Source of the DNA: an uncultured Eubacteriales bacterium
Lineage (GTDB): Bacteria; Actinomycetota; Coriobacteriia; Anaerosomatales; JAUVQN01
DNA: 64,000 nucleotides
Direction of reading: 5' to 3'
Assembly (NCBI GenBank): GCA_964406675.1
Contig: CAYOSP010000001.1
Span: 16,861 to 80,860 of the forward strand
In this document: positions 38,474-39,190 of the stretch, piece by piece
Numbering within the stretch: the first letter of the stretch is position 1
How the letters are laid out: every line of letters begins with the position of its first letter
Made by a program: the position numbers and the translations under genes
The notes under the pieces: generated by a model
What the model was told of the DNA's origin: nothing
Database searches by the model: none
What the model saw: only the letters and a program-made list of their open reading frames with translations

Positions 38474-39190
38474 ATGGCGGACAAGGAAGTGGGATGCGGG
38501 AAGCCGACCGGTAAGGCCGTGGGCGAGCAGGAGGCGGGCGGCTCGAAGACGCCGGCCACGGCCTCCGAGAGCGCGGCGGCGCCCGCACCGGTCACCCGGA
38601 TCATGGTGGGGAAGAAGGCGCCGGACTTCGAGGCCCCCAGCTTCCGGAACGGCGAGTTCGGGAGCGTCCAGCTGTCGGATCTCCTCGGGCGCTGGGTCAT
38701 GCTGTGCTTCTATCCCGGCGATCTCACCTTCGTTTGACCGACCGAGCTGTCGGCGGTCGCCGCAAGGTACAGCGAGCTGGAGGAGCTCGGCGTCGAGGTG
38801 ATCTCGATGAGCGTGGACAGCAAGTTCGTCCACAAGATCTGGAACGAGACCGAGCTGTCCAAGATGGTCGACGGGGGCATCCCCTACCACATGGCGTCGG
38901 ACGGCGCGGGTCACATCGGACGCGCGTACGGCGTGTACGACGGAGATGCGGGGGTGAACGTGAGGGGCCGCTTCCTCATCGACCCGGACGGCGTGATCCA
39001 GGCGATGGAGGTCCTCTCACCGCCGGTGGGACGCAACGTCGACGAGACGGTGCGCCAGGTCCAGGCGTTCCAGAAGGTGCGCGACTCCGGTGGGGCCGAG
39101 GCGACACCCTCGGGCTGGCAGCCGGGGGACGAGACACTCAAGCCCGGTCCCGATCTGGTCGGGCGGGTCTGGGAGCACTGGAAGCCTTAG
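38474..39190 (+). CDS. AhpC/Prx-family peroxiredoxin with in-frame TGA (38735-38737) at the peroxidatic Cys position; putative selenocysteine peroxiredoxin
   Basis: Track ORFs 38099..38737 and 38798..39190 are in the same frame. Read through, the sequence is CFYPGDLTFV-[TGA]-PTELSAVAARYSELEELGVEVISMSVDSKFVHKIW, which is colinear with the E. coli AhpC motif FYPADFTFVCPTEL. ATG 38474 follows GGAAGGAG. Confidence 0.8.
38736..38790 (+). promoter_or_regulatory. Candidate bacterial SECIS region downstream of the UGA
   Basis: A hand-folded hairpin spans 38748-38764 (UG-[U bulge]-CGGC / GGUC loop / GCCG-CA). Counting from the U of UGA, the GGUC loop occupies nt 21-24. Alternative hairpins lie at 38736-38758 and 38773-38789. 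Confidence 0.5.

Follow-up and report, generated by a model that had tools for sequence, protein, structure and literature searches.

The selenocysteine insertion sequence (SECIS) of E. coli fdhF has a 17-nt upper stem-loop (nt 15-31), which is separated from the UGA by 11 nt, carries a bulged U17, and exposes a G22-G23-U24-C25 loop, in which G23 and U24 have a role in recognition by SelB (PMC8659212). SelB in complex with GTP and selenocysteine (Sec)-tRNA(Sec) binds the SECIS, the lower helix is unwound when the ribosome arrives, and Sec is delivered at the UGA in the A site (PMC13188914). The general model of bacterial SECIS (bSECIS) elements (bSECISearch, Zhang and Gladyshev; PMC13188914, Fig. 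2A) comprises a loop of 3-9 nt that is placed 16-37 nt from the UGA and has G in its first two positions, an upper stem of 4-16 bp, and an energy of -7.5 kcal/mol or lower. Peroxiredoxin (Prx) is among the experimentally verified selenoprotein families of bacteria and is characterized by a TxxU motif (PMC13188914); selenoprotein Prx was counted in 12 genomes already in 2006 (PMC1794560), and the PrxU type takes its founding member, a peroxiredoxin with selenocysteine, from Eubacterium acidaminophilum (Sohling et al., 2001, as cited in PMC7231847 and PMC13188914). Here, we analyze a PrxU-type gene with an in-frame UGA, and the hairpin that follows this UGA, in a 64,000-nt stretch of contig CAYOSP010000001.1 (positions 16,861 to 80,860; hereafter, the window) from an uncultured bacterium assigned to the Coriobacteriia (Actinomycetota). 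The hairpin at 38748-38764 of the window is very probably the bacterial SECIS of this gene (all features are listed in Table 1).

With Cys substituted at the UGA, the translated gene attains a score of 378.5 bits with the NCBIfam equivalog NF040737 (peroxi_PrxU), the curated cutoff of which is 270, and the match covers residues 6-237 of the protein and positions 2-230 of the 233 profile positions without a frameshift. Pfam matches include AhpC-TSA (PF00578, E = 8.6e-36), Redoxin, and 1-cysPrx_C. Thus, both the full-length score above the equivalog cutoff and the T-F-V-U active site within an AhpC/TSA fold assign the protein to PrxU. The translation of 38474-39190 reads CFYPGDLTFV-U-PTEL around the active site, and the UGA is aligned with Cys in the Cys-form homologs. 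Over the 50 codons on either side of the UGA, read in the same frame, the G+C content at third codon positions (GC3) amounts to 0.90 upstream and 0.98 downstream, and other stops are absent. In a coding test of the in-frame TGAs of the window, the prxU site was the only convincing one; a second candidate, at 34635 on the minus strand, was read as a genuine stop between two adjacent genes and rejected. The gene is predicted to encode a peroxiredoxin of 238 residues whose peroxidatic residue is Sec88, and the GAAGGAG sequence upstream of the ATG supports translation of the N-terminal extension. The protein resembles E. acidaminophilum PrxU and the NF040737 family in being an equivalog with the TxxU motif and an N-terminal extension within the profile, whereas its host appears to be not a clostridium but an uncultured high-G+C actinobacterium of Coriobacteriia type. 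For PurA, encoded in the window, the best named relatives are from uncultured Coriobacteriia and Actinomycetota metagenome-assembled genomes, with identities of 80-85%. The neighborhood of the active site is DLTFVU-P, as opposed to the commoner DFTFVU-A.

Numbering the U of the UGA (38735) as +1, the hairpin (H1) consists of a 5' arm at 38748-38754 (U14, G15, bulged U16, C17, G18, G19, and C20), a GGUC loop at 38755-38758 (G21-G22-U23-C24), and a 3' arm at 38759-38764, the pairs being U14-A30, G15-C29, C17-G28, G18-C27, G19-C26, and C20-G25. The original prediction, which had suggested that this site holds a SECIS like that of E. coli fdhF, drew the hairpin with its GGUC loop and bulged U16 exactly as it is present in the window. 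The fdhF sequence quoted there is likewise exact (5412 of 5426 complete E. coli genomes contain the 31-mer within fdhF), and the GU dinucleotide is indeed shifted by one nucleotide, being at +22/+23 in the window and at +23/+24 in fdhF. As in fdhF, the element lies in the coding region directly 3' of an in-frame UGA, its 17 nt are arranged as 2 bp, a bulged U, 4 bp, and a GGUC loop with the GU in the matching place, and the ribosome has to unwind a lower region that contains the UGA and is able to pair (PMC8659212; PMC13188914). It differs from fdhF in the spacer, which is 10 nt (stem-loop nt 14-30) rather than 11 nt and is 10 nt in all PrxU orthologs, in the G+C-rich stem (CGGC/GCCG), in the loop, which alternates between GGUC and AGUU, and in belonging to a peroxiredoxin rather than a formate dehydrogenase. 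The bSECIS model is matched by the 4-nt loop, the stem of 4 bp plus 2 bp, the G21 and G22 in the first two loop positions, the distance of 17 nt (+4 to +20) between the UGA and the loop, which is constant in 103 orthologs, the Cys-aligned position of the UGA, and a structure that shows compensatory changes in Sec forms and is mostly lost in Cys forms.

In a single sequence, such a hairpin after a TGA is only moderately unusual and is not convincing alone. Hairpins of the same class (4 bp, an NGUN loop, and 2 more bp with an optional bulge) were found at 63 of 127,960 window positions, 8 of them with a GGUC or AGUU loop, and 6 of the 1274 TGA triplets in the window are followed by a class hairpin at the matching offset. 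The significance of H1 therefore comes from its position after the sole convincing in-frame UGA and from its conservation in orthologs.

To collect orthologs, one genome per GTDB species was scanned at the DNA level for FYPxDxTFV-TGA-xTE, which yielded at least 120 loci carrying TGA from more than 12 phyla. The loci listed include representatives of Chloroflexota, Bacillota, Thermodesulfobacteriota and other "delta" groups, Acidobacteriota, Synergistota, Spirochaetota, Calditrichota, Ignavibacteria, Gemmatimonadota, Zixibacteria, Actinomycetota, Pseudomonadota, Aquificales, Campylobacterota, and others; an actinobacterial metagenome-assembled genome among them (L049) has both the Sec-form gene and the hairpin. 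Sequences matching TGA-NNN-ACN-GAR-NTN-NCN-GCN-GTN-GCN without indels, and thus encoding an x-x-A-V peptide, were aligned over 78 nt, giving 103 sequences (102 of the at least 120 loci and the window), to which the following counts for Sec forms refer unless otherwise stated. The loop nucleotides G22 and U23 (alignment columns 34 and 35) are invariant, and the offset of the stem-loop is fixed in all 103 sequences. In the bulged register, the H1 core together with the 21-24 pair has 83.6% of cells paired (73.3% in shuffled alignments), with 98 cells changed on both sides, and none of 500 shuffles reaches this value. In the uninterrupted register, 86.0% of cells are paired as opposed to 71.5% in the shuffled alignments, 162 cells are changed on both sides, and the covariation score is 0.44 versus 0.16, which again none of 500 shuffles reaches and which slid controls fall far below. 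Pair 18-27 occurs as G-C (65), A-U (29), U-A (4), and G-U (4), pair 21-24 as G-C (58) or A-U (42) with three exceptions, and pair +15/+30 (columns 27-42) as GC (42), UA (20), CG (13), and AU (10). De novo folding of the alignment by RNAalifold returned only a hairpin, in the H1 register. The covariation check proposed with the original prediction thus turned out in its favor: the stem-loop is conserved at a fixed offset across the 103 Sec-form sequences, with between 98 and 162 double-changed cells depending on the register.

Two other hairpins of this region, H2, which contains the UGA, and H3, located downstream, showed nothing of the kind. For H2, 76.8% of cells are paired versus 76.4% in shuffled alignments, there is no covariation, and the pairs 16-34, 17-33, 18-32, and 21-30 are broken in 42-55% of the orthologs; for H3, the corresponding values are 61.5 and 59.5%, and slid controls are equally good. 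As neither exceeds the shuffled controls, both were ruled out as conserved elements. The UGA triplet itself (38735-38737) can pair with U23-Y24-G25 (38757-38759; columns 13-15 with 35-37) in 103 of the 103 sequences, through U-G, G-C or G-U, and A-U pairs, with the flanking helix pairs broken in about one-half of them. Since both triplets are nearly invariant and the flanks are broken, this pairing is regarded as a by-product of conservation.

Most of the covarying positions are third positions of codons, so that covariation could be mimicked by genomic G+C content. However, GGUC and AGUU loops both occur in every GC3 bin between 0.3 and 1.0, whereas the mixed forms are almost absent (AGUC in 0 and GGUU in 1 of the 103 sequences), which rules out G+C content as the cause of the coupling. 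Fitch parsimony on a neighbor-joining tree requires at least 22 switches of the loop state and at least 23 for pair 18-27; the tree, built from the flanking protein sequence, is rough, and these counts indicate only the order of magnitude. A further control was provided by Cys forms, for which a metagenome scan for homologs with a TE-x-x-A-V-A peptide yielded 27 loci. A pairable R-GU-Y loop is present in 7 of these 27 loci compared with 100 of the 103 Sec forms (Fisher P = 8e-15), and the 4-bp core is intact in 6 of 23 distinct Cys-form sequences compared with 95 of the 103 Sec forms (P = 1.5e-10). Among the 120 best protein database matches, Ala-Val is encoded at the loop codons in 83 of 84 Sec forms but in only 13 of 30 Cys forms, indicating that the RNA element constrains the protein sequence and not vice versa. 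Thus, the hairpin is under selection specifically in UGA-containing genes, and its assignment to the fdhF type of SECIS is supported by both ortholog conservation and the Cys-form control. Three Cys-form (TGC) metagenome contigs (L142, L143, and L147) keep a complete hairpin, UUGGCGGC-AGUU-GCCGCC, which may be a fossil SECIS left after a recent Sec-to-Cys conversion.

The alignment also defines the family consensus. Position +16 pairs with +29 (U16-A29 or G16-C29) in 93 of the 103 sequences, the consensus stem continues with +15/+30 and +14/+31, and it is uninterrupted over 7-8 bp. In the window, U16 is opposite C29, and the two extra pairs G15-C29 and U14-A30 are reached only by bulging U16. 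According to our reading of the alignment, both extra pairs are gained by a bulge in L004 and L031, which have S-A-V-A-A codons as in the window, while L063, also with S-A-V-A-A codons, gains G15-C29 and a U14-G30 wobble. The bulged U, to which the original prediction had drawn attention, is thus present in the window at the place equivalent to that in fdhF, but most PrxU family members pair this position; it is found in a minority of the orthologs only and is not a conserved determinant. The loop is best written as R21-G22-U23-Y24 with covarying R21 and Y24, GGUC being one of its two forms.

Two variant arrangements were observed among Sec-form peroxiredoxins. A second clade, with the active site FFYPADFTFV-U-ATEFAALAEQ, comprises loci from Rokubacteria, Planctomycetota, Nitrospirota, and Krumholzibacteriia (L001, L005, L007, L064, L066, L071, L082, L092, L101, L103, and L112) and keeps the C-terminal Cys; its SECIS-like hairpin is different (CUGCUCU-GGC-AGAGCAG, with the loop at +24..+26). 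A third variant (TEL-S/T-H/S-I-A-V-R/G-Y; L036, L046, and L091) has a 6-bp stem, CAUAGC/GCUAUG or GAUAGC/GCUAUC, with a compensatory change of C21-G37 to G21-C37 (read by eye) and a 5-nt loop (UGUAC or GGUUC) at +27..+31, which is two codons further from the UGA.

Several observations weigh against the identification of H1 as the SECIS. The energies in isolation are -7.2 kcal/mol for H1, -15.1 kcal/mol for H2, and -9.6 kcal/mol for H3, the competitor H2 being 8 kcal/mol more stable than H1. The minimum-free-energy fold of 38725-38810 is formed by H2 and H3 and not by H1, with H2 pair probabilities of 0.8-1.0 and an H1 pair probability of 0.00 in the unconstrained ensemble of the free RNA. The H1 core returns when +1 to +9..+12 are held unpaired, with a probability of 0.13-0.41 depending on the context, so that it does not predominate in this genome even when the 5' side is open. 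Compared with its orthologs, for which the median hairpin energy is -9.5 kcal/mol, H1 of the window is the 13th weakest of 103, and alone it is 0.3 kcal/mol short of the bSECIS threshold, reaching -11.6 kcal/mol only with a lower stem that is not conserved. A search of the whole window against Rfam at gathering thresholds returned a tRNA only and no SECIS family (over 38650-38850, with E up to 10, there were two chance-level matches, to a snoRNA and a miRNA family). Finally, selA, selB, selD, and tRNA-Sec were not found in the 64-kb window by ARAGORN, Rfam, and Pfam scans of 40 open reading frames (ORFs).

The original prediction had listed the two competing hairpins (38736-38758 and 38773-38789), both of which exist and make up the minimum-free-energy fold, and had named as fatal to its claim a strong thermodynamic preference for them combined with a failure of orthologs to conserve the GGUC-loop stem. 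The preference was found; a failure of conservation clearly was not. It is the cross-genome comparison that settles the SECIS reading, whereas thermodynamics alone argues the opposite. The weakness of the upper hairpin is not disqualifying, since under identical parameters the minimal 17-mer of E. coli fdhF is weaker still (-4.2 versus -6.2 kcal/mol for that of the window). Folded without constraints, 74% of the orthologs have the H1 core as their dominant fold, and this share rises to 94% with +1..+11 unpaired. The lower stem mentioned above pairs G12-U16 with A35-C39 (38746-38750 with 38769-38773) across a 6-nt bulge on the 3' side; by our inspection, its pairs are absent from L004 and L031, two orthologs that share the S-A-V-A-A codons, and it was rejected as a conserved part of the element.

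The stability of H2 raises the question of whether this hairpin, which spans 38735-38759 and encloses the UGA, rather than the GGUC hairpin, is the functional recoding structure. Its standing as the minimum-free-energy structure and a GCUG loop that starts with G would fit such a role, which is nevertheless very unlikely, given that H2 shows no covariation and has four pairs broken in about one-half of the orthologs, that its loop at +12..+15 is nearer to the UGA than the 16-37 nt of bSECIS elements (PMC13188914), and that it would be unwound with the UGA in the A site. For H1 as the SECIS, the folding results suggest a different part for H2. In the free mRNA, the region is, according to folding, mostly locked in the more stable, UGA-containing H2. 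A ribosome bringing the UGA towards the A site would presumably unwind approximately the first 9-12 nt after it, and the 3' half would then be freed to form the stem-loop from +14, as modeled by the refolding obtained with positions forced to be unpaired. By analogy with E. coli fdhF, SelB carrying Sec-tRNA(Sec) would bind the two extruded bases of the R-GU-Y loop, G22 and U23, which would be positioned at the mRNA entrance with a constant spacing from the UGA, and Sec would be delivered in place of termination. We infer both SelB binding at G22-U23 and Sec insertion at the UGA.

The lack of Sec machinery within the window would also be expected if the UGA were a true stop, the gene being a peroxiredoxin pseudogene, recently inactivated or split, from a lineage that has lost Sec decoding, and the hairpin a fossil from a Sec-using ancestor. 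This scenario could draw on the sole database record found for the gene (P0119), a 127-residue C-terminal fragment from an NCBI contig of 194,739 bp, on the hairpin, which is among the weaker ones of the family and is out-competed by another fold, and on the fossil hairpins that persist in some Cys forms (L142, L143, and L147). We regard it as quite improbable. The coding signal is undiminished on either side of the UGA, with no other stops, the full-length protein is far above the PrxU cutoff without a frameshift, and the hairpin has kept its core, its GU, and its spacing. A TGA-to-TGY change, the usual escape from the loss of Sec decoding, is not seen here, and fragment calls are what gene callers are expected to produce at Sec codons (PMC13188914).

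Annotation of the homologs brings in another possibility, namely, that Trp, Cys, or Gly is inserted at the UGA, either through near-cognate read-through or under an altered genetic code, with the hairpin merely stimulating read-through or pausing. Trp is found at the catalytic position in 84 of the 120 best protein database matches (P0001-P0120), where TGA was translated as W by gene callers, and read-through of stop codons can in general be promoted by stable downstream RNA structures. Yet the 90% clusters with W-bearing members also hold 83-aa N-terminal fragments that end at the UGA, and the W calls together with the fragments constitute a systematic annotation artifact of the PrxU selenoprotein family. 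Moreover, in this window of about 70% G+C, only one other TGA passed the in-frame test, and this one is itself a stop, which argues against a general reassignment of TGA. A peroxiredoxin with Trp or Gly as its peroxidatic residue would have no catalytic activity, and the status of PrxU as a selenoprotein family has been established by experiment (Sohling et al., 2001, as cited in PMC13188914 and PMC7231847). Decoding by a standard amino acid is therefore extremely unlikely. The element is best explained as an ordinary bacterial SECIS; both this kind of element and the selenoprotein family are known, and the only database record found for the gene gives it as a fragment. A broader proposal, which we put forward only as a speculative and rather doubtful one, is that the PrxU SECIS represents a distinct and very widespread class outside Rfam, with R21 and Y24 strictly coupled (G..C or A..U), and with H2 as an additional "off" fold in this genome. 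Under this proposal, only the GU would be left unpaired, as an extruded two-base signal at the fixed positions +22/+23, and Sec insertion could hinge on ribosome-driven refolding, which could tune insertion versus termination.

The N-terminal extension of PrxU proteins comprises approximately 40 residues, which are covered by the NCBIfam PrxU profile, and in the window, where it falls within 38474-38600, it includes Cys8 within VGCGKPTG. A G-C-[AG]-R-P-T-G motif is present in 68 of 102 Sec-form loci among those listed (e.g., L006, L008, L009, L011, and L013). The usual C-terminal resolving Cys is mostly absent from these proteins: the last 45 residues are without Cys in 81 of 100 Sec-form loci, and the C-terminal segment of the window protein is EATPSGW where typical 2-Cys Prx proteins have VCP. 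From this pattern of conservation, Cys8 probably serves as the resolving residue, and the N-terminal Cys and Sec88 may form a selenenylsulfide.

The window has a G+C content of 68-72% throughout. An ATP-binding cassette (ABC) transporter transcribed divergently and a convergent PAS histidine kinase are the neighbors of prxU. In the Pfam scans of the 40 ORFs, genes of purine biosynthesis, the rpsF-ssb-rplI-dnaB genes, ABC transporters, histidine kinases, and three radical-SAM genes were identified.

Table 1. Features of the analyzed window (positions refer to the 64,000-nt stretch).
Feature	Position	Strand	Remarks
PrxU-type peroxiredoxin gene	38474..39190	+	238 codons and stop; single in-frame UGA at codon 88; translation, profile matches
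Shine-Dalgarno-like GAAGGAG	38460..38466	+	7 nt before ATG 38474; read directly from the sequence
Cys8 codon in N-terminal extension (VGCGKPTG)	38495..38497	+	Candidate resolving cysteine
UGA, presumably read as selenocysteine	38735..38737	+	Peroxidatic position of TxxU motif
SECIS upper stem-loop (H1), very probable	38748..38764	+	17 nt; sequence, energy, covariation in 103 orthologs; lacking in most Cys forms
G22-U23 loop dinucleotide	38756..38757	+	Invariant in 103/103; counterpart of fdhF G23/U24; presumed SelB contact
Competing hairpin H2 (UGACCG.CCGA / GCUG / UCGGCGGUCG)	38735..38759	+	-15.1 kcal/mol; pairs with UGA and 5' half of SECIS
Downstream hairpin H3 (CGAGCU-GGAGG-AGCUCG)	38773..38789	+	-9.6 kcal/mol; local to this genome
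Purine-biosynthesis cluster (purF-like, purL, purQ, purC, purB, purE, purD, purA)	about 2.7-25.7 kb		
RACo-type corrinoid activator	13783-15357		
rpsF-ssb-rplI-dnaB	about 44.4-48.7 kb		
tRNA-Gly(CCC)	48959-49034	minus	Sole tRNA in window (ARAGORN, Rfam)

Recognition of the UGA together with its hairpin restores a full-length selenoprotein peroxiredoxin in the annotation. The PrxU SECIS consensus, a stem of 4-8 bp with an R-GU-Y loop whose GU is invariant at +22/+23, could be made into a covariance model for detecting these genes and calling them correctly. The current understanding of Sec decoding is unchanged by the finding, which is of value for annotation and for the clean PrxU SECIS consensus that it yields; for the organism itself, it implies Sec decoding in this uncultured high-G+C actinobacterium.

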